Positions 5,971-19,715 of a stretch of 23,685 bases of DNA are shown in pieces. Origin of the DNA: an uncultured virus (IMG/VR IMGVR_UViG_3300007735_000789) (Duplodnaviria > Heunggongvirae > Uroviricota > Caudoviricetes); the IMG/VR virus record IMGVR_UViG_3300007735_000789. One strand, given 5' to 3'. Each line of letters starts with the position of its first letter. Within the stretch, counting starts at the first letter, position 1. Under the pieces are notes generated by a model, which was given only the letters and a program-made list of their open reading frames with translations, had not been told where the DNA came from and did not search any database. Made by a program: the position numbers and the translations under genes.

Positions 5971-5979
5971 TCTGAAAAG

Positions 5980-6052
5980 TACCCGAGGTGGGATTCGGAC
6001 CCACGCTGTAACGATTTTAAGTCGTTTGCCTCTTCCGCTGGGCTACTCGGGC
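5980..6052 (-). tRNA. trnL: tRNA-Leu(UAA), 73 nt, short variable loop, no encoded CCA
   Basis: GCCCGAG/CTCGGGT acceptor, D-arm with GG, AACGA-CTTAAAA-TCGTT anticodon arm, GTGGG-TCCGAAT-CCCAC T-arm, discriminator A. Confidence 0.9.
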
Positions 6053-7418: not shown

Positions 7419-8311
7419 CAACACGACCAAAAGTGGTGTGGTTTGGTGATGATTACCAGCAATGGGGCGGAACCTGGGTCGCTTCCATGCTCAGTAAGGC
7501 AGGAGCAACGCCGTATTTTGGCCAAAAATTAGAAAATTTTCCAGTTCTGGAAGATTGTGTGGTAATAACTAACAACAGCAAGGCTTACGAATACATCCAC
7601 AGGCTGAGCGAAAACGGCAATAAGTTCGGCGTGGTTCTTTTATCGGACGAAACTCTAGAAGAACCCATGTTTTACTTAGAGGATTCCAGCTGTTTGTTTG
7701 CCGCCCGTAATTATTTCAGCCCTAAGTACTACCAAGATCCAAAAGTATTTACGTTTCCGCTTGGGTACAGGCACTGCTTTGAGCATTTTGTTAAAGAAAC
7801 AAAGAAAGCATCCGACAGACGTTTGGCCTGGAGCTTTGCGGGATCTCTAAAAGCAGACCGCAGTACAGCCATAAATTGTTTTACAAAGCTCAGACCGTAT
7901 CAATTAAACGTATGCGAATCGTTTAATGATCCAAAACAACTAACGACACGGGAATATGCACAAGTAATGGCGGACAGTGTGTTCGCTATTGCACCTCAAG
8001 GCGGGTACAACATAGATTCGTTCAGGATTTATGAAGCACTGGAAGCAGGTACTATACCTGTCGTCATGAACTCAACGACATATTTTCAAGTAAAACCGTC
8101 TTACTGGCACGTAATTTTTCAAGGCGAAGTAGAAATGCCGTTCGTGCGAGCGGACAGTTGGGATGAAGCTGCGGACAAATGCGCAAAAATTATCCACGAG
8201 GGTCGGTTAGACAAAGTTCAAGCAGAGTGTCGTGCGTTTTGGGACAAGTGGAAAGACCTATGGCGCAAGCGGTTTTGCCAAGAAATTAGCAAATTTAGTT
8301 TAGACCGCTAA
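7415..8311 (+). CDS. Exostosin/GT47-like glycosyltransferase
   Basis: The ATG at 7415 overlaps the upstream stop (ATGA). WSFAGS and YAQVMADSVFAIAPQG...DSFRIYEALEAGTIPVV are the exostosin signature. Confidence 0.8.
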   Translation: MTTRPKVVWFGDDYQQWGGTWVASMLSKAGATPYFGQKLENFPVLEDCVVITNNSKAYEYIHRLSENGNKFGVVLLSDETLEEPMFYLEDSSCLFAARNYFSPKYYQDPKVFTFPLGYRHCFEHFVKETKKASDRRLAWSFAGSLKADRSTAINCFTKLRPYQLNVCESFNDPKQLTTREYAQVMADSVFAIAPQGGYNIDSFRIYEALEAGTIPVVMNSTTYFQVKPSYWHVIFQGEVEMPFVRADSWDEAADKCAKIIHEGRLDKVQAECRAFWDKWKDLWRKRFCQEISKFSLDR

Positions 8312-8461
8312 AAGTGCGACAAAAATTTTTTTAATATGGGCCTGACAGCATATTAACACTAAAGCGTTTGGGGCCACTTTACCCCGCTGATTCCAATAGG
8401 GTTCTCGCCGCCCCCGTCGTATAGTAGCCATATATAAAAAAAAGGCCGAAATTGCGGGCAG

Positions 8462-8579
8462 GTACGCGTACATGCGCGTGTGCGCGTGTGTATGCGCGTG
8501 TGCGCGTGTGTATGCGCGTGTGCGCGTGTGTATGCGCGTGTGTGTGCGCGTGGGCGCATGCGTGTGTGTGCGTGTGCGT
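8462..8579. repeat. Alternating purine-pyrimidine tract with a 20-bp unit (TATGCGCGTGTGCGCGTGTG, about 3.5 copies)
   Basis: Unbroken RY alternation over 8462-8552, one exception at 8553, then alternation continues to 8579. Confidence 0.95.
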
Positions 8580-8646
8580 CTCGTTCTGATCGGAGCAAAC
8601 AACCGAGGTTATTAGTACAATTGTATTATTATTAGGCGGGGATCAA

Positions 8647-8688
8647 AGGTTAAGAAACTTTAACCTAACCTTAACCTGTTCTTAATTG
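8647..8688 (+). promoter_or_regulatory. Cyanobacterial-type Pho box (PhoB/SphR site)
   Basis: TTTAACCT-aac-CTTAACCT-gtt-CTTAATTG at 11-bp period (8659-8688), plus an inverted perfect half-site AGGTTAAG (8647-8654). The cyanobacterial consensus is a CTTAACCT repeat with 3-bp spacers. Confidence 0.65.
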
Positions 8689-8715
8689 ACAGATGCGCCG
8701 GACCTGAGGCATGCT
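8686..8715 (+). promoter_or_regulatory. Sigma70-type promoter (TTGACA-N18-CATGCT)
   Basis: Perfect -35, weaker -10, directly upstream of the first hairpin at 8722. Confidence 0.55.
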
Positions 8716-8721
8716 TTGCTC

Positions 8722-8755
8722 ATCGATCACAGGTTGATCGATCGAACCTAGACAA
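8722..8755 (+). promoter_or_regulatory. boxB-like hairpin plus rrn-type boxA (GAACCTAGACAA)
   Basis: ATCGATCA/TGATCGAT stem (8722-8742) immediately followed by a motif resembling cyanobacterial rrn boxA, GAACCTTGA(A/C)AA. Confidence 0.55.
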
Positions 8756-8906
8756 CTTAAAGATCCTTGCCAGGCCGCGAACCGTTCGCGTCGCTTGCCA
8801 CGGGCTCCCTGTCCTTGCCACTTAACTGTGCCCAGGGCCGGAGCCTAGGACAGGCTTAGTGTAACTATGCGAGAAGCAGTAAGGATCTTAAAGTATCTAG
8901 GTTTGC

Positions 8907-8918
8907 GAACCTTGACAT
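8907..8918 (+). promoter_or_regulatory. Second boxA-like motif (GAACCTTGACAT)
   Basis: Lies directly after the first long stem closes; 10/12 identical to 8744-8755. Confidence 0.45.
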
Positions 8919-9630
8919 TCTGAATAGTTTGCCCGTAGTTAGATAGCTAGCACGGATAGCCTACGCTATGGGTAAACTATTCTTTATAGCTTCCTAACTT
9001 TAACTAAGCGAATGTGACAATTGCTTAGTTAAAGTTACAGCGGATAAGCATTATCTAGGCGCGCGTTATTCCCTAGAGTGTGAAGTTTGATCTAGCATAC
9101 ATCAGCTAGATACTTTACCATGCTTACTAATACATATAGTGGCAGCTGATAAGTTCTCTCAACTACTACAGCGAATCAGTATAGGTCGCACCTATATATT
9201 CTTCCACGTCGCCTTTAATGGATGCCAGCGTGGCAACTGAATACATAAGACTAAGGTTAATCTAGTTAGTTACAGTGCTGACTACTGCTTACTTGTCTTA
9301 GTGCAGGTATGCAAACTATTCAAATCATTCTCTCACTACAGCGTTATCTGTTAGATGGCGAGAATAGATATTAATTGAATAGTATACTTTAAGCACTGTA
9401 ACTAACTAGACAATACCTAAAGGCCTGTCACTTTTTGTGCGCTGTAAATTATTTGGCTAAGTTAGCCAGGGTTACATTCTGCTGGCAATCTTAGTTAATG
9501 TACTGCACATAATGTAGTTATTAATTAAGGATCACATTAGATCATTTATGATCATACACTAGAATCTCTCCCCTTATGTATTACATAAGGTGAGGGACTT
9601 TATGTCTCTCATTCACCTTAACTTCACATC

Positions 9631-9789
9631 ATGTTTACCATTTTCTATTGTTCTTTTGACGGTTTAATTGACAAAGAGTGTGAGTCTTACAACACTCGGA
9701 ATGAGGCTGAAACAGTACTTAAGGCTTTAGAATCTCTCCCCACTAAATCATCAGGTGGTAGGTTCTTTATCATTCCTTCTTCTTTCTAA
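9631..9789 (+). CDS. Small hypothetical early protein (52 aa, MFTIFYCSFDG...)
   Basis: Read manually, below the ORF-track cutoff. Same CATCATG start context as its neighbours. Confidence 0.6.
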   Translation: MFTIFYCSFDGLIDKECESYNTRNEAETVLKALESLPTKSSGGRFFIIPSSF

Positions 9790-9809
9790 ATCACCTCAAC
9801 TTAATTATC

Positions 9810-10079
9810 ATGATTAAACATTTTTGCGCTGTTAACGATGTTAACGGTAACCCTCAACGTTGTTATGTCTTAGTTAATGAAGATGGTTGCAACTTAGCTG
9901 TCTGGGATGAAGGCTACCTAGGTAGTGACGCTGTGCCAGGTATATGGCGCAGAGAAGCATATGCTGCTGAGCGTATAAATTGCAGTACCAGATGGTACCG
10001 CAAGATGTTAAGAACTTTACCATCCCCAGCTTATGCTTATGATGTACCCACTTATTCTCACTTATGGAATGCATTATGA
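9810..10079 (+). CDS. Hypothetical early protein (NGNP-R motif)
   Basis: 89-aa ORF with an apparent distant paralog at 11179. Confidence 0.75.
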   Translation: MIKHFCAVNDVNGNPQRCYVLVNEDGCNLAVWDEGYLGSDAVPGIWRREAYAAERINCSTRWYRKMLRTLPSPAYAYDVPTYSHLWNAL

Positions 10080-10252
10080 CGGGACTGAAACCATTCGCTG
10101 GCACATTCTTTTTTAAGAATGTTCAGGTTAATTGTATTGACACTAGCCGCCGATTAGGCGGTGATCTGTTCTACTTTAAGTCACCGACTGGCCGTTTAGT
10201 GTGGGCAGCCACGCCGGGTAAGGCCCGCAAATTAATTAAGGAGCTTGTCTGA
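10064..10252 (+). CDS. Small hypothetical protein (start may be 10076)
   Basis: Overlaps both neighbours in operon fashion. Confidence 0.6.
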   Translation: MECIMTGLKPFAGTFFFKNVQVNCIDTSRRLGGDLFYFKSPTGRLVWAATPGKARKLIKELV

Positions 10253-10491
10253 TGTTCTCACTTCACCGCCGAACTTCCCATGGAGTGTATCACTTAATGG
10301 GAGAGTATGAGACTGATTATGTAGCGTTCGCTTTTAAGGATTGTGTTAACAATCATGTGGGTAGCAATGTGTGGATCAGCACTGATTTAAATGTTCCTTA
10401 TGCACACAGGCTAGTACATTATGATCCTGATCATGATGATTATGGTGACGTAGATAATTGGGTAATTGAGTTACCTGTTACTTGTAATTAA
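10252..10491 (+). CDS. Small hypothetical protein
   Basis: TGATG coupling with the upstream gene. Confidence 0.7.
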   Translation: MFSLHRRTSHGVYHLMGEYETDYVAFAFKDCVNNHVGSNVWISTDLNVPYAHRLVHYDPDHDDYGDVDNWVIELPVTCN

Positions 10492-10511
10492 TTCCTTTGC
10501 TCTTCAACATC

Positions 10512-10772
10512 ATGGCTAAACGTAAGACGTTTGAGGTATCACAGTTCAGAGTCTGGATTAATGACAGACTAGCATCTGATACATTATCTCCTCACGAGAA
10601 GTATGGTTTAATGTGTGCCCTTGATCATATACTACACGAAACCGGAAACTACAAAGGGTTCGGTTATGCTTACAAGGATGATGTAAGGCCTTGTTTTCCG
10701 GATAAAGTAGGAGCGGAGGCATGTAACCCTGAATGGGATATGACTAGGGACATGCGCAGAAAGTATTACTAA
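10512..10772 (+). CDS. Small hypothetical phage protein (MAKRKTFEV...LHETGNYKGF)
   Basis: The ATG at 10512 in CAACATCATG context is preferred over the TTG at 10497. Confidence 0.75.
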   Translation: MAKRKTFEVSQFRVWINDRLASDTLSPHEKYGLMCALDHILHETGNYKGFGYAYKDDVRPCFPDKVGAEACNPEWDMTRDMRRKYY

Positions 10773-10795
10773 ACCACACTAAACTCACACTAACA

Positions 10796-11008
10796 ATGGA
10801 TCTTCATTCACAACTTGATCACCTACTAACTCAGTGGGATATCAAACAATCCACTAAGCGTGGATACAATCCGTTTGCCTTAGGTATTTACTTAAGGCAA
10901 GCGGAACGTATTGTCGAAAGTGTTAACCAAGGCGCCACAATTAGTGACGCTATAGATAAACATTTCAGCGACAGAATTGCAGCAATGCTGCACAAAAAGT
11001 TCTCTTAA
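10796..11008 (+). CDS. Hypothetical protein, copy 1 of a duplicated gene
   Basis: 61/70 aa identical to 11724-11936. Confidence 0.85.
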   Translation: MDLHSQLDHLLTQWDIKQSTKRGYNPFALGIYLRQAERIVESVNQGATISDAIDKHFSDRIAAMLHKKFS

Positions 11009-11044
11009 TTGTTGAGTCCCCATATTAACTATGGGAGCACTACT

Positions 11045-11097
11045 TGCCCAGTTCAATCTTATCCCAAACTCTAAATGGGATAAGATTGAACTTGGCA
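11045..11097 (+). other. Long intergenic hairpin (17-bp perfect stem); possible RNase III site
   Basis: AGTTCAATCTTATCCCA (11050-11066) pairs with TGGGATAAGATTGAACT (11076-11092), extended by TGCC/GGCA. Confidence 0.7.
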
Positions 11098-11178
11098 GAA
11101 AGTATTACTAATCAATTATTTATAGTGGGCCGCGCATACTTACCACGCGGACAATCAACATCTACAGACACAATCACC

Positions 11179-11493
11179 ATGGCCAACGTTAAATTCTTGA
11201 TTCGTTTTACTGATGGTAGCAGTAGCTATGTGCATAACATCTTGCATATAGTTACATCAAACACTAGCAATGGTAACAGTCGTCAATTAATACTACCGCT
11301 AGATGACTATGGTCATGTCTTAGCTGTTATCCACGCTGGCGTTACTTGGGGAGACTTAGACTCATTTAATAAGGAGTTTGCCCAATGGTCCAGGTTACAT
11401 AGTGTGCGAATCAATGTGTCACCCACAGAATTCAAACGCTGGGCATCTATGACTCCCGGAGAACTTGAATCAATTACTACCGAAACTATTTAA
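11179..11493 (+). CDS. Hypothetical early protein, distant paralog of 9810-10079
   Basis: ATG at 11179 in ACACAATCACCATG context. The upstream TTG extension runs through the hairpin. Confidence 0.7.
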   Translation: MANVKFLIRFTDGSSSYVHNILHIVTSNTSNGNSRQLILPLDDYGHVLAVIHAGVTWGDLDSFNKEFAQWSRLHSVRINVSPTEFKRWASMTPGELESITTETI

Positions 11494-11517
11494 CACAATT
11501 ACAAATTAACTATCATC

Positions 11518-11685
11518 ATGGCCCGCACATTTAAACCTCAGCTATCCCTGATTCCCTATTTACAGGTGCCAGAAAATAGGCTAGAACTTGCATATAAATG
11601 GTATGCAAGAGAACCAAATTACGCGGATAACTTTGCAGCTTTTTCTTACTGGCTGGAAAGATGTATTGAAGAGTCACACTATTAA
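11518..11685 (+). CDS. Small hypothetical protein (55 aa, MARTFKPQL...)
   Basis: Read manually; ATCATCATG context; fills the gap between genes. Confidence 0.65.
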   Translation: MARTFKPQLSLIPYLQVPENRLELAYKWYAREPNYADNFAAFSYWLERCIEESHY

Positions 11686-11740
11686 CGGAACCATGAACTT
11701 GCAGTCACACTATTAACGGAACCATGAACTTGCAGTCACA
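11672..11740 (+). repeat. Perfect 31-bp tandem duplication (AGTCACACTATTAACGGAACCATGAACTTGC x2 + AGTCACA)
   Basis: Units at 11672-11702 and 11703-11733. Confidence 0.95.
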
Positions 11741-11936
11741 ACTTGATCATTGTCTCACTCAGTGGGACATCAAACAATCTGCCAAACGTTATTACAATCC
11801 GTTTGCCTTAGGTATTTACTTAAGGCAGGCAGAACGTATTGTTGAAAGTGTTAGCCAAGGCGCCACAATTAGTGACGCTATAGATGAACATTTTAACGAC
11901 AGAATTGCAGCAATGCTGCACAAAAAGTTTTTTTAA
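11724..11936 (+). CDS. Hypothetical protein, copy 2 of a duplicated gene
   Basis: 61/70 aa identical to 10796-11008. Confidence 0.85.
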   Translation: MNLQSQLDHCLTQWDIKQSAKRYYNPFALGIYLRQAERIVESVSQGATISDAIDEHFNDRIAAMLHKKFF

Positions 11937-11958
11937 TCCATTTTTACACACAATCATC

Positions 11959-12156
11959 ATGGCTAAGTATGTTCATTTAGTATGGATTCCTAAAGAGAAT
12001 AGGATTGATCAGTGCTTCAGCAACGTTAACGAAGCCTATAAGTATGCAAGACATACTTACGGCACTGATGAATACGTGGAATCATATAGATTATGGGATG
12101 AGTTTCAACTACTACAAGAAGATGAAGAATCAAACATACTGTACGGAACTAAGTAA
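11959..12156 (+). CDS. Small hypothetical protein (MAKYVHLVW...)
   Basis: ATG at 11959 in ACACAATCATCATG context. Confidence 0.7.
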   Translation: MAKYVHLVWIPKENRIDQCFSNVNEAYKYARHTYGTDEYVESYRLWDEFQLLQEDEESNILYGTK

Positions 12157-12187
12157 CAATTCTGTCACAAATTAACTATTATCACGG

Positions 12188-12355
12188 ATGGCACAAAATG
12201 ACAACTTGCGGACTTACAAAATTGAATTAGTTATCAGTGTGCGTAAGGACATTAGCAGCCCGTTAGTGTGGCTGCCCGACTGTATCTATGACAACATAGA
12301 TATGCCAACTGGCGAAAACCTATTAACATTCAACATGGAGGAATTAAACTCATGA
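12188..12355 (+). CDS. Small hypothetical protein (55 aa, MAQNDNLRTYK...)
   Basis: Read manually; ATGA overlap with the next gene. Confidence 0.6.
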   Translation: MAQNDNLRTYKIELVISVRKDISSPLVWLPDCIYDNIDMPTGENLLTFNMEELNS

Positions 12356-12501
12356 TCAACACTGAATGGCGCCAACTTATTGAGAATATTAATGAGTTGG
12401 ACAAACAACTTATCAACACAACTAACACATTGGAGTATGAATCTTTGCTGCTACAAATTGAACATCTAGAGACTAAATTGCAGCAGGTAACTGTTGTTTA
12501 A
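12352..12501 (+). CDS. Small coiled-coil protein (49 aa, MINTEWRQL...)
   Basis: Read manually; ATGA coupling, heptad-like pattern. Confidence 0.6.
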   Translation: MINTEWRQLIENINELDKQLINTTNTLEYESLLLQIEHLETKLQQVTVV

Positions 12502-12561
12502 CTCCGCTTCGCGGGGCCAAATCACACACTACTCTAGCACTCACTCACTAACACAATCGCC

Positions 12562-12789
12562 ATGTTCTTTGAGATTATTTCTATTGCGTTTGACGCTTCA
12601 GATGAAGATCGAACAGCACAACAAGCACACAATTTAGAGATGGAACTTAACAACGAATTCAGAGGATTATTAATAGAAGCTGACAACTCAGATGAAGTAC
12701 CTGAGCTAGTTGAAACACTAGCTAGGGTTCCACTTGTGGACATTATGGTTAAGCCTGTAAATCCTTTCTCAAAGTTAACATCAAACTAA
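12562..12789 (+). CDS. Small acidic hypothetical protein
   Basis: ACACAATCGCCATG context; D/E-rich. Confidence 0.7.
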   Translation: MFFEIISIAFDASDEDRTAQQAHNLEMELNNEFRGLLIEADNSDEVPELVETLARVPLVDIMVKPVNPFSKLTSN

Positions 12790-15652: not shown

Positions 15653-15716
15653 GGCAATGCTTGGGGCTCCTAAGCCATTGGCTTTAGGGGTAGGGGTTCG
15701 ATTCCCCTCATTGTCT
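15653..15716 (+). ncRNA. tRNA-like element lacking a D-arm
   Basis: GGCAATG/CATTGTC 7-bp acceptor, AGGGG-TTCGATT-CCCCT T-arm, central hairpin 15667-15690. Confidence 0.6.
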
Positions 15717-16322: not shown

Positions 16323-16348
16323 CTGTGATACACTTCCGTGGGATCCAG

Positions 16349-16381
16349 TGGTCGTCTTACGTAGGGCGACCATTTCTCTTT
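16349..16381 (+). terminator. Hairpin plus T-rich tail (possible intrinsic terminator or 5' stabilising hairpin)
   Basis: TGGTCGTCTT/AGGGCGACCA stem followed by TTTCTCTTT. Confidence 0.45.
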
Positions 16382-18527: not shown

Positions 18528-19715
18528 ATGGACAACAAACTTGTTACTGCACTTCAATCTTTTCGAGCATCTCTTAACGAAGCTACGCTGGAAAGAACAT
18601 CTATTATCGATGGGCTGCTAGCTACGCTGATCAGCAAACAGAATGCTTTTCTCCTCGGAGAGCCAGGCACAGGTAAATCCGACCTGGTGCGCAACATATG
18701 CAGTGGTATTTCCGACGCTAACTACTTTGGTTACCTTTTAACTCCTACGACAGATCCTTCCGAGATTTTCGGTCCGGTTGCTGTATCTAAGCTGCTTAAC
18801 GATGAGTACACACGGGATGTTGTAGGGTATCTTCCTAATGCACACATTGCATTTACAGACGAGTTGTTCCGTGGGTCTTCTGCAATCCTCAACTCGCTTC
18901 TTACTCTGTTAAACGAACGCACATTTAACAATGGCAAAGAGGTCATCAACACTCCGATTCAATCTATTGTCGCTGCTACAAACTCCTGGCCTGACGAAGA
19001 ATCTTTACAAGCATTCGCTGATCGATTTTTGTTCAGACCCACGGTGGAGTTTCTTAAAAAACCAGTATCGAAACGGATCCTTGATTCGTGGGCTCTTGGG
19101 ATTACACAGCGACCAACAGTAGGTAAGCACATAACCCTTAAACAACTAGAACAACTACAACAGGAAGCAGCCACACTGCCTGTGTCTGAGGAGTTCTTAG
19201 GTAAATACGGTGAGCTGTGGGATTTGTTGGCTGCCCGAGGGATCACAATCAGTGATCGCCGTCGTGTTCAGATACTTAAGTTTCTTCGTGCTTGGGCTTT
19301 AGTTCAAGGAAGCGAAGAGCTGTACCCCGAACACATGCACGATTCTTTAATTCATATTGTGTACAGAACACAAGAGGATCAAGATGTGATTAAAGAAGTC
19401 CTAGAGCAAGCTGTGCCCACGGCGGAAAAGATGTTTAGTGATGTAAAACGAGCTGCATCAGGTGTTATGACTCAGTATCAAGCGTACGCACATAAAGCTC
19501 AGTCACGCGCCCTTTCCGAACTGAATGAACTGGTTGTTCAGTATCGTGCATTCCACAGGGATATTCAAGTTCTGCGAGACAAAACCAGCGAGATGCTAGA
19601 CAGTGGTAACTACCGTATGACACTACCCGTCCGCCAAGTTGGCATGAAGCTGCACCAACAGCTACAGAGTTACACGGACACACTTGCAGTCGCCATAAGC
19701 GACTTCTCCAAGTAA
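18528..19715 (+). CDS. MoxR/RavA-like AAA+ ATPase
   Basis: Walker A GEPGTGKS, Walker B AFTDELFR, LNSLLTLLNER, AATN, DRFLFR and ISDRR. Confidence 0.92.
   Translation: MDNKLVTALQSFRASLNEATLERTSIIDGLLATLISKQNAFLLGEPGTGKSDLVRNICSGISDANYFGYLLTPTTDPSEIFGPVAVSKLLNDEYTRDVVGYLPNAHIAFTDELFRGSSAILNSLLTLLNERTFNNGKEVINTPIQSIVAATNSWPDEESLQAFADRFLFRPTVEFLKKPVSKRILDSWALGITQRPTVGKHITLKQLEQLQQEAATLPVSEEFLGKYGELWDLLAARGITISDRRRVQILKFLRAWALVQGSEELYPEHMHDSLIHIVYRTQEDQDVIKEVLEQAVPTAEKMFSDVKRAASGVMTQYQAYAHKAQSRALSELNELVVQYRAFHRDIQVLRDKTSEMLDSGNYRMTLPVRQVGMKLHQQLQSYTDTLAVAISDFSK

Follow-up and report, generated by a model that had tools for sequence, protein, structure and literature searches.

A probable large structured leader with two boxA-type sequences at the head of a putative early operon in an uncultured tailed phage

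Introduction

In ribosomal RNA (rrn) operons, boxA precedes the 16S and 23S processing stems, and antitermination there involves boxB-boxA-boxC and a complex of NusA, NusB, NusE (S10), NusG, SuhB and S4. The nut sites of phage lambda measure about 40 nucleotides (nt) and need the N protein bound to boxB; the N leader is sensitive to RNase III. Large structured phage RNAs are, to our knowledge, rare, and their jobs are mostly not known. Here we describe positions 8722–9600 of a 23,685-nt stretch of DNA (the window) from an uncultured virus of the Caudoviricetes (IMG/VR record IMGVR_UViG_3300007735_000789). This region most likely represents a real, conserved and uncatalogued family of large structured RNAs. 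We read it as the 0.72–0.88-kilobase (kb) structured leader of an early operon that recruits host Nus factors, and we give this reading a probability of about 0.55.

Results

A gene-free, strongly folding region absent from Rfam

A sequence-only reading of the window had singled out a stretch free of open reading frames (ORFs), and the ORF list bears this out: no ORF of at least 40 amino acids (aa) lies on either strand in 8636–9630, which covers 8722–9600. Besides the 52-aa first gene at 9631, eight ORFs overlap 8650–9640; they are merely 20–33 aa long and lie inside covarying stems, and small leader peptides were thus ruled out. The 4227 models of Rfam 15 gave no family match in 8722–9600, neither at the gathering score nor at E values up to 1. 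GOLLD and ROOL are therefore excluded as families for this region, as the sequence-only reading had supposed. Within 8300–9800, the 13 weak Rfam matches (E up to 1) all fell on a (GC/GT)n tract at 8422–8628, off the fold, and the sole gathering-score match in the window was a tRNA-Leu at 5980–6052. A blastn search of 8600–9650 against 50,697 records of cultured-phage DNA found no match. No description of the leader element was found in the literature, though further publications may exist.

The region folds far better than its composition predicts. Against dinucleotide shuffles, the check that the sequence-only reading had proposed, the + strand fold reaches −316.9 kcal/mol where 20 shuffles give −225.3 ± 8.0 (z = −11.5, 0 of 20 as good) and the − strand −290.7 against −227.0 ± 6.6 (z = −9.6). 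Four relatives tested in the same way, with 15 shuffles each, have + strand z values of −4.7 to −9.8. An inverted-repeat search of 8300–9800 returned 11 pairs, including all four long stems of the sequence-only reading (Table 1), and the shorter hairpins that it listed (8776–8790, 8808–8854, 9091–9110, 9180–9196, 9223–9235, 9490–9529 and 9572–9590) are all present in the minimum-energy fold.

Structure is retained while sequence changes

Fourteen related copies were found in viral and metagenome contigs, making 15 with that of the window. They fall into three clades: clade A (the window, L005, L091 and L099), clade B (L007, L087, L092–L096 and L098) and clade C (L097, L100 and L113), the last being about 45% identical to the other two; L092 and L098 are partial. 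According to run labels, the lineage comes from freshwater, river, estuary and drinking-water metagenomes. The virus record G001 (the same as L005) has 53% of the window's sampled words in common and its copy of the region matches at 88%. An invariant 20-mer from the loop of hairpin P5 retrieved three viral and ten metagenome contigs, and in viral contigs the 17-mer AGATCATTTATGATCAC from the 3′ end hit five loci, four of them chance matches and the fifth the true relative L113. The 20-mer has no match in 185,579 species genomes (one genome per species) and is thus not a copy of host sequence. As for protein queries, a 322-aa upstream gene retrieved G001 only, and a GP88-family gene led to 80 loci, with the leader present in L005 and L007 only. 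Profiles of three leader modules searched with nhmmer gave no further copies in 114 loci, and the exact 19-mer of the stem at 9261 had no match in viral contigs, the sequence of that stem being lineage-specific.

Covariation among homologs, named by the sequence-only reading as a test of its RNA, is present in all three aligned parts of the leader. In domain 1 (8720–8992; 11 copies of clades A and B), 98.1% of 836 cells are paired. Both partners have changed in 17 of 76 pairs, where shuffles give 9.3 ± 1.6 (none of 500 as high as observed) and slid partners one to six. Hairpin P5, compared over 14 copies from all clades, has 95.4% of its cells paired and 10 of 18 pairs changed on both sides; the corresponding values for the 3′ module, likewise from 14 copies of all clades, are 98.2% and 9 of 21. 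None of 500 shuffles reached the observed covariation score in either case, and slid partners left zero to three such pairs in P5 and zero to two in the 3′ module. Related sequences can outscore shuffles without any structure; the slid-partner control is the more telling because it retains kinship. At the level of single helices, both-side changes affect two of the seven pairs of P1 (helix 1, 93.5% of cells paired), four of eight pairs in helix 3 and 5 of 17 in helix 7 of the multi-branch domain, and 8 of 16 in the terminal hairpin (helix 2 of the 3′ module).

Close relatives such as G001 show the same behavior on a coarser scale. Some blocks are near-identical, and others are wholly replaced yet again form hairpins in place (8995–9037 and 9091–9110). 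Module-by-module folds of nine sequences bear out this retention of hairpins despite replaced sequence. Judging from these comparisons, the structure of the leader is under selection.

Two rrn-type boxA copies behind a putative promoter

Two boxA sequences lie in the first part of the leader (Table 1). At one mismatch or fewer, GAACCTTGAMAA has just these two sites in 23.7 kb, both on the + strand, with 0.29 sites expected by chance and 4 of 100 shuffles reaching two. Both copies are conserved in all three clades, copy 1 at a constant position in clades A and B. The clade B form of the conserved motif ACCTTGACA is GAACCTTGACAA; in clade C, copy 1, found at the corresponding position, reads GCACCT[TC]GA[TAC]AA and copy 2 reads GCACCTTGA[CA]AA and then CTGAATAG, both copies being altered in parallel from GAACC to GCACC. 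In the clade C copy L097, 17–21 nt are identical to the boxA regions of bacterial rrn spacers, and outside the boxA stretch the rest of the leader shows no resemblance to host rrn sequence. Each copy is followed by a long helix, P2 after copy 1 and P5 after copy 2.

In a paper on cyanobacterial taxonomy (PMC8461337), the boxA of the cyanobacterial 16S-23S internal transcribed spacer is given as GAACCTTGAAAA. Counting one genome per species, the 19-mer GAACCTTGAMAACTGMATA occurs at 120 loci at least; among the matches listed are many cyanobacteria (such as Prochlorococcus, Synechococcus, Vulcanococcus, Nostoc and Microcoleus), Clostridia, Chloroflexota and others. An Rfam scan of 12 such genome loci placed the motif between 16S/tRNA-Ile/tRNA-Ala and 23S in six and 24–130 nt before a tRNA array in two, the remaining four having no rRNA or same-strand tRNA within 700 nt downstream. 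Of the four functions that the sequence-only reading had offered, "antiterminator" thereby gains specific support, from two rrn-type boxA copies conserved in three clades.

A putative sigma-70-type promoter lies directly upstream, and its predicted start, at about 8722, coincides with the 5′-most base of P1. Of the 14 copies that cover the site, 13 have TTGAC[AC] (the exception is L093), and A2 and T6 of the −10 box are retained, with a spacer that varies in sequence from clade to clade; kept hexamers around a variable spacer are the pattern expected of a real promoter of this type. A consensus promoter scan omitted 8685–8714, as CATGCT falls below its threshold. At the other end, the first gene begins 30 nt past the last hairpin in every clade, although the gene itself differs between clades, and the leader measures about 880 nt in the window and 724–773 nt in relatives. 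No terminator-like site was found on the + strand in 8200–10145, and no run of T follows the terminal hairpin, where the sequence is ACTTTATG, so that this hairpin does not qualify as an intrinsic terminator or attenuator. With no terminator-like site to close it, the element is best described as the leader of an operon and not as a separately terminated gene. The proposal of an undescribed large RNA made early in infection thus stands as regards a non-coding, exceptionally structured and conserved element that is not in Rfam, and its place at the head of the putative early operon is supported, directly behind a conserved promoter-like sequence of sigma-70 type and directly before the first small early gene; "free-standing RNA" gives way to "operon leader".

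How might such a leader act? Host RNA polymerase would start near 8722, and the nascent RNA would fold into about 15 helices, with P1 protecting the 5′ end. The two boxA 12-mers would be exposed on emerging and would recruit host NusB and NusE together with other Nus factors, a step modelled on rRNA and tRNA operons and on lambda nut. The polymerase could then pass fast and termination-resistant through the early operon of about 7 kb, as far as 16347–16374. P2, P5 and other stems of 15–25 base pairs (bp) are probable RNase III sites, and the conserved choice of partners for GAGGGAC near the 3′ end suggests that the RNA would refold once the leader is cut off.

Weighing the leader reading: strand and level of action

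Does the selected structure belong to an RNA of the + strand? Promoter, boxA and gene orientation agree on that strand, which points to a + strand RNA. The stability excess over shuffles is larger on + than on − in five of five sequences (91.6 against 63.7 kcal/mol in the window, 66.8 against 53.9 in L007, 58.9 against 39.1 in L093, 42.0 against 19.7 in L097 and 58.4 against 33.1 in L100), and raw minimum free energy (MFE) favors + in all 10 clade A and B copies. Five G-U positions of domain 1 are invariant or nearly so, and in P5 and the terminal hairpin the transitional pair states are G-U, not A-C; in L113 the apical stem of P5, elsewhere invariant, switches from A-U to U-A and from C-G to U-G. 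Two strands each have two covarying partners: GAGGGAC can pair with 9565–9571 or 9604–9610, and GGTTT with one or the other boxA copy. Such alternative pairings, in a fold that is nested and multi-branched, fit a single-stranded molecule, not a cruciform. We regard the support for + strand RNA as moderate, not decisive.

Several observations weigh against a Nus-recruiting leader made from the + strand. The sequence-only reading had remarked that deviations from perfect pairing are often G-U on +; this holds for the five positions of domain 1, but a strand-symmetric helix search counts 42 G-T against 26 A-C, a moderate asymmetry, and the union counts of G-T and A-C by domain (64/32, 5/20 and 31/15) run the other way in domain 2. 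Raw MFE in clade C is weaker on + by 7.7 and 0.6 kcal/mol. The RNA evidence consists of 24 runs, all as assembled contigs. Of the four compared with the region, X15 and X18 are probably DNA; the sole true RNA library, X17, contributes one 253-nt contig (8697–8949, depth 3.2), whose first base lies 25 nt ahead of the predicted start and which may stem from carried-over DNA. Signals at the DNA level are suggested by the 10-nt phasing of GATC sites near the 3′ end and by the repeats in front of the promoter. As for antitermination, boxA covers about 25 nt out of 880, and no role is assigned to the greater part of the fold (about 850 nt, the P5 loop included); copy 1 is itself part of the paired helix P2, and a small hairpin can sequester the 5′ half of copy 2. 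The need for antitermination is not obvious either, as the leader holds no terminator-like site and the operon has 18 weak ones where 11.4 ± 3.9 are expected, with one strong site (16347–16374). The boxA variant is spread over cyanobacteria, Clostridia, Chloroflexota and other groups and does not fix the host. Finally, Synechococcus phage S-EIVl (see below) has no boxA-like site in a leader, a looser pattern matching coding sequence only, and nothing within three mismatches of the invariant loop.

Part of this evidence would also suit an element that acts as DNA, such as a replication origin or packaging site, through cruciforms or single-stranded DNA hairpins, with any RNA incidental. Both strands fold far beyond shuffles, the wobble-pair asymmetry between them is weak, GATC occurs 10 times in 8601–9640 where 3.9 are expected (2.6-fold enriched), the Z-DNA-capable (GC/GT)n tract lies 100 nt upstream, and the cumulative GC skew has a local maximum at about 9–11 kb. 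We nevertheless consider this very unlikely. Duplex DNA could hardly accommodate nested, multi-branched pairings that exclude one another, the five conserved G-U pairs of domain 1 would be A-C mismatches on the other strand, and the larger stability excess on +, like the agreement of promoter, boxA and genes, goes with RNA. There are also no iterons: the direct repeats in 8722–9600 comprise two two-copy families (12 and 14 nt), and the arrays called by Tandem Repeats Finder (TRF), at 8472–8576 and 8656–8677, lie outside the fold.

Modules of the leader

The features of the leader and its borders are collected in Table 1.

Table 1. Features of the leader region and its borders, in window coordinates
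Feature	Position	Strand	Remarks
Phased TTAACC/GGTTAA repeats	8646–8684	+	period about 11; just upstream of −35; alignment
Putative early promoter	8685–8714	+	−35 TTGACA 8685–8690; 18-nt spacer; −10 CATGCT 8709–8714
P1, 5′-terminal hairpin at predicted first transcribed base	8722–8742 (8722–8729 with 8735–8742)	+	covariation
Multi-branch domain	8743–8905	+	closing helix P2, 8743–8770 with 8879–8905; hairpins 8776–8790 and 8796–8860
Stem, core of 8743–8770/8879–8905	8755–8768/8881–8894		14 nt, 93%
boxA copy 1, GAACCTAGACAA	8744–8755	+	1/12 mismatch to GAACCTTGAMAA; forms 5′ base of helix P2
boxA copy 2 and extension, GAACCTTGACAT TCTGAATAG	8907–8927 (12-mer 8907–8918)	+	1/12 mismatch to GAACCTTGAMAA; runs into 5′ arm of P5
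P5, 17-bp hairpin	8922–8982	+	covariation, all clades
Stem	8922–8938/8966–8982		17 nt, 88%
Perfect hairpin module	8995–9037	+	inverted repeat; module folds
Stem	8995–9015/9017–9037		21 nt, 90%
Three-way domain	9045–9128	+	closing helix around hairpins 9052–9075 and 9091–9110
Hairpin 9180–9196 (loop CGC), helix 9205–9234 and single-stranded motif	9180–9253	+	
Long hairpin with variable top	9261–9410	+	19-bp perfect base kept as helix
Stem	9261–9279/9392–9410		19 nt, 100%
Hairpins 9463–9477 and 9490–9529, then three GATC sites	9463–9553	+	
Terminal hairpin	9561–9579 with 9583–9601	+	covariation, all clades
First small early gene, 52 aa	9631–9789	+	30 nt after terminal hairpin; bounds leader

Clade C likewise has a hairpin at the position of P1. 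The multi-branch domain that follows holds the conserved single-stranded stretch GGACAGGCTTAGTGTAACTAT. At its 3′ edge, a 5-bp UGCG-capped hairpin (8895–8911) is possible in clades A and B; it overlaps boxA copy 2, competes with P2 and is absent from the consensus fold, and L100 has a GCAA-capped hairpin just upstream of boxA. A long-range pairing of 8878–8900 with 9106–9128 was set aside, as the partner arm is replaced in G001. The TACAGCG motif, with four of its seven window copies in the leader, was dropped too: 2 of 100 shuffles reach seven, and it is not kept in G001.

The apical 24 nt of P5 (8940–8963, TAGATAGCTAGCACGGATAGCCTA) form a bulged stem with a 7-nt loop and are probably a binding site. 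In 13 of 14 copies they do not vary at all, even with overall identity at about 45% and a covarying stem, and this contrast raises the possibility that the leader serves mainly to supply stable RNAs, one or several, that RNase III or RNase P would excise and that would act in trans. The P5 hairpin would then be an effector that binds a factor of host or phage or acts as its decoy, for instance in anti-defence or takeover, with boxA merely ensuring synthesis. Hairpin modules swapped as units between lineages, L093 and L094 among them, make an arms-race pattern that would suit such a role; the 15–25 bp stems fit RNase III, a covarying refolding hairpin at 9592–9610 fits release of the leader from the mRNA, and a conserved tRNA-like element in the same operon (15653–15715) suggests stable-RNA processing. 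On the other hand, a free RNA is not bounded by any terminator or mapped processing site, and no target appeared: the reverse complement of the 24-mer has no + strand match of at least 9 nt save at 18616, where the match falls in its own palindromic GCTAGC part, and the 20-mer is missing from all the species genomes searched. The precursor reading overlaps with that of a Nus-recruiting leader rather than excluding it, and we think it unlikely.

The modules further downstream vary between lineages. In relatives, the hairpin at 8995–9037 is of unrelated sequence and is again a hairpin, in three or four versions that all fold; it is absent in clade C. Within the three-way domain, hairpin 9052–9075 has the loop CGCGNNGTNAT, found in clade C too, and the closing helix reads AAGCAT/ATGCTT in the window, GAGTAT/ATACTC in G001 and CAGTTTGG/CCAAACTG in clade B. 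The helix of the next module is TATAGGT/ACCTATA in the window and TACAGTT/AACTGTA in clade B, and its conserved single-stranded motif AATACATAAGA (9243–9253) is complementary to 9573–9582. The base helix of the long hairpin at 9261–9410, noted as a stem from the start, is conserved in the versions TAGTTAGTTACA (window), TAGTGGGTCACA (G001) and GAGTTAGCTAC (clade B). Its nested top, in contrast, is a lineage-specific expansion, about 110 nt longer in the window than in the closest relatives.

The three GATC sites that follow (9530, 9540 and 9550) are spaced exactly 10 nt apart in [GAT]GATCA[CT] words, two of which are kept in clade C. The last two form a conserved hairpin or palindrome, GATCATTTATGATC (9540–9553; helix 1 of the 3′ module), with five pairs; among 13 distinct sequences, the closing pair is A-U in seven and U-A in the other six. 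The array is reminiscent of Dam-sensitive sites, for instance the hexamer repeats in the pac site of phage P1.

Could the whole be a string of independent local hairpins and protein sites (attenuators, operators or stabilisers) in a long untranslated region, with boxA-like 12-mers that are fortuitous or otherwise used and no overall architecture? Modules are exchanged or lost singly, as at 8995–9037 and in the top of 9261–9410, GATCATTTATGATC is a palindrome of operator type amid GATC sites phased at 10 nt, and the TTGACA within boxA copy 2 can be read as a −35 box. Long-range closing helices (P2 over 160 nt, and that of 9045–9128) are however kept with compensatory changes, the boxA copies change together in clade C, where they have 17–21 nt of identity to rrn boxA regions, and the inner TTGACA has no conserved −10. 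We find this quite unlikely.

The leader ends in the terminal hairpin, whose 3′ arm GAGGGAC (9592–9598) has an alternative partner in GTCTCTC (9604–9610). All 14 of the copies compared allow the resulting hairpin of 6–7 bp, which comes in four sequence versions. GAGGGAC and both partners change jointly in clade B (GAGAACC, GTTCTC and GGTTCTC), and they do so again in L098 and clade C. The 14-nt sequence TAGAATCTCTCCCC is found twice without change and in direct orientation, at 9560–9573, in the 5′ arm of the terminal hairpin, and at 9728–9741, inside the first early gene; the latter copy could be a further alternative partner for 9587–9601.

Upstream region and operon context

The TTAACC/GGTTAA repeats upstream of the −35 box comprise three or four words in clades A and B and are absent in clade C. 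All copies read TTAATC in L093, a concerted change, and TRF calls the 11-nt period at 8656–8677. They are probably DNA-level promoter-upstream sites and resemble a phased protein-binding array or a curved UP-like element. Farther upstream, between the upstream operon and the early promoter, the (GC/GT)n tract (8460–8580) is about 100 nt of alternating purine and pyrimidine, Z-DNA-capable, with a perfect 20-nt period repeated 3.5 times; clades B and C have shorter CG/CA-rich tracts there. The tract breaks metagenome contigs and attracts spurious depth that is very high (2234 in X15 for bin 8470–8563).

Three other promoter candidates were discarded. TTAATTGACA as a phage-specific promoter word is weak, with eight sites at one mismatch or fewer against 3.2 expected; TAGAAT (9560), as a promoter of the first gene, is not conserved in clades B and C; and the inner TTGACA (8912, inside boxA copy 2) has no conserved −10 to make it a second promoter.

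The early operon consists of small genes over about 7 kb and ends at the strong terminator-like site 16347–16374. None of the 12 small early ORFs in 9631–12789 reaches a Pfam gathering score, one having a sub-threshold match to DUF7036; further along are GP88, a MoxR-type ATPase, a VWA protein and a dCTP deaminase. The operon is mosaic: among the DNA compared, small ORFs are common to pairs of clades and none to all three. Two paralogous 70-aa early genes in it (10796–11008 and 11724–11936) are about 90% alike. The genes in front of the leader encode glycosyl- and methyltransferases, and a tRNA-Leu(TAA) (5979–6052, − strand) sits among them, on the other side of the promoter region.

The tRNA-like element at 15653–15715, also in the early operon, has a 7-bp acceptor-type stem, a perfect T-arm (GGGGTTCGATTCCCC), no D-arm and a 5-nt "anticodon" loop. 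It is uncalled by ARAGORN and near-identical in G001, L006 and L007; Rfam links it weakly to mascRNA (24.5 bits, E = 0.022) and to the T-arm of tmRNA. It may be a signal for processing by RNase P/Z.

Genes for a terminase, a portal and a major head protein are present in G001. Of the cultured phages, a single one has a match to the portal, at 41% identity: Synechococcus phage S-EIVl (79 kb), the only cultured relative found. We infer that the host is likely a cyanobacterium. S-EIVl has a 516-nt gene-free region (44032–44547, or L107:4032–4547) that heads a leftward operon of small genes and repeats the word CTGACTACGTTA, with no sequence likeness to the window's leader. This analogous region is merely mildly structured (z = −3.2 and −4.5, the latter on the operon strand), and S-EIVl was set aside as a model.

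Discussion

The leader has a clear anatomy, covariation at three levels of divergence and, in boxA, a handle that can be tested. Its two host-type boxA copies point to capture of the host rRNA antitermination machinery by a phage lineage. We found no publication that links cyanophage to boxA or antitermination, the one paper that mentions all three being concerned with PCR-based counts of picocyanobacteria; should the host prove to be a cyanobacterium, the leader would apparently be the first indication that early transcription of a cyanophage is under Nus/boxA-dependent control. As a candidate binding site, the invariant 24-nt hairpin in turn lends itself to direct capture of a partner.

A bolder idea combines these elements. 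With two boxA copies, processing-type helices and a tRNA-like element, the head of the early operon may be disguised as a miniature stable-RNA operon, such that the host machinery of rRNA transcription, RNase III and RNase P would make and excise a large stable trans-acting RNA whose invariant bulged hairpin (8940–8963) would, soon after infection begins, bind and hold some factor of the host or the phage. We offer this as a speculation that is probably wrong in the whole. If true, it would define a new class of large functional phage RNA, specific to a widespread freshwater and probably cyanobacterial phage lineage.

How does the leader compare with known systems? Like GOLLD and ROOL (RF01998 and RF03087), it exceeds 700 nt and is phage-borne, non-coding, supported by covariation and without an assigned function. 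Unlike them, it strings long near-perfect hairpins together within an mRNA leader and does not have the form of a compact multi-junction fold, and it has no flanking tRNAs. With rrn and tRNA operons it shares the boxA class (GAACCTAGACAA and GAACCTTGACAT in the window, GAACCTTGA[AC]AA in cyanobacterial 16S-23S spacers and tRNA-operon leaders), and with rrn operons the arrangement of two boxA copies, each followed by a long helix. It differs from rrn operons in that it heads protein-coding phage genes, not rRNA, with Nus binding that is predicted here, and rrn leaders have no counterpart to its further conserved structure of about 850 nt. Against lambda nut it is about 20 times larger and carries a boxA of the host phylum's rrn type, and no N-like protein was recognised among the 12 ORFs by Pfam gathering score, N-like proteins being small and diverse. 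What it has in common with nutL and nutR of the pL and pR leaders is the basic plan: a phage early-operon leader with boxA and hairpins, thought to make the polymerase termination-resistant.

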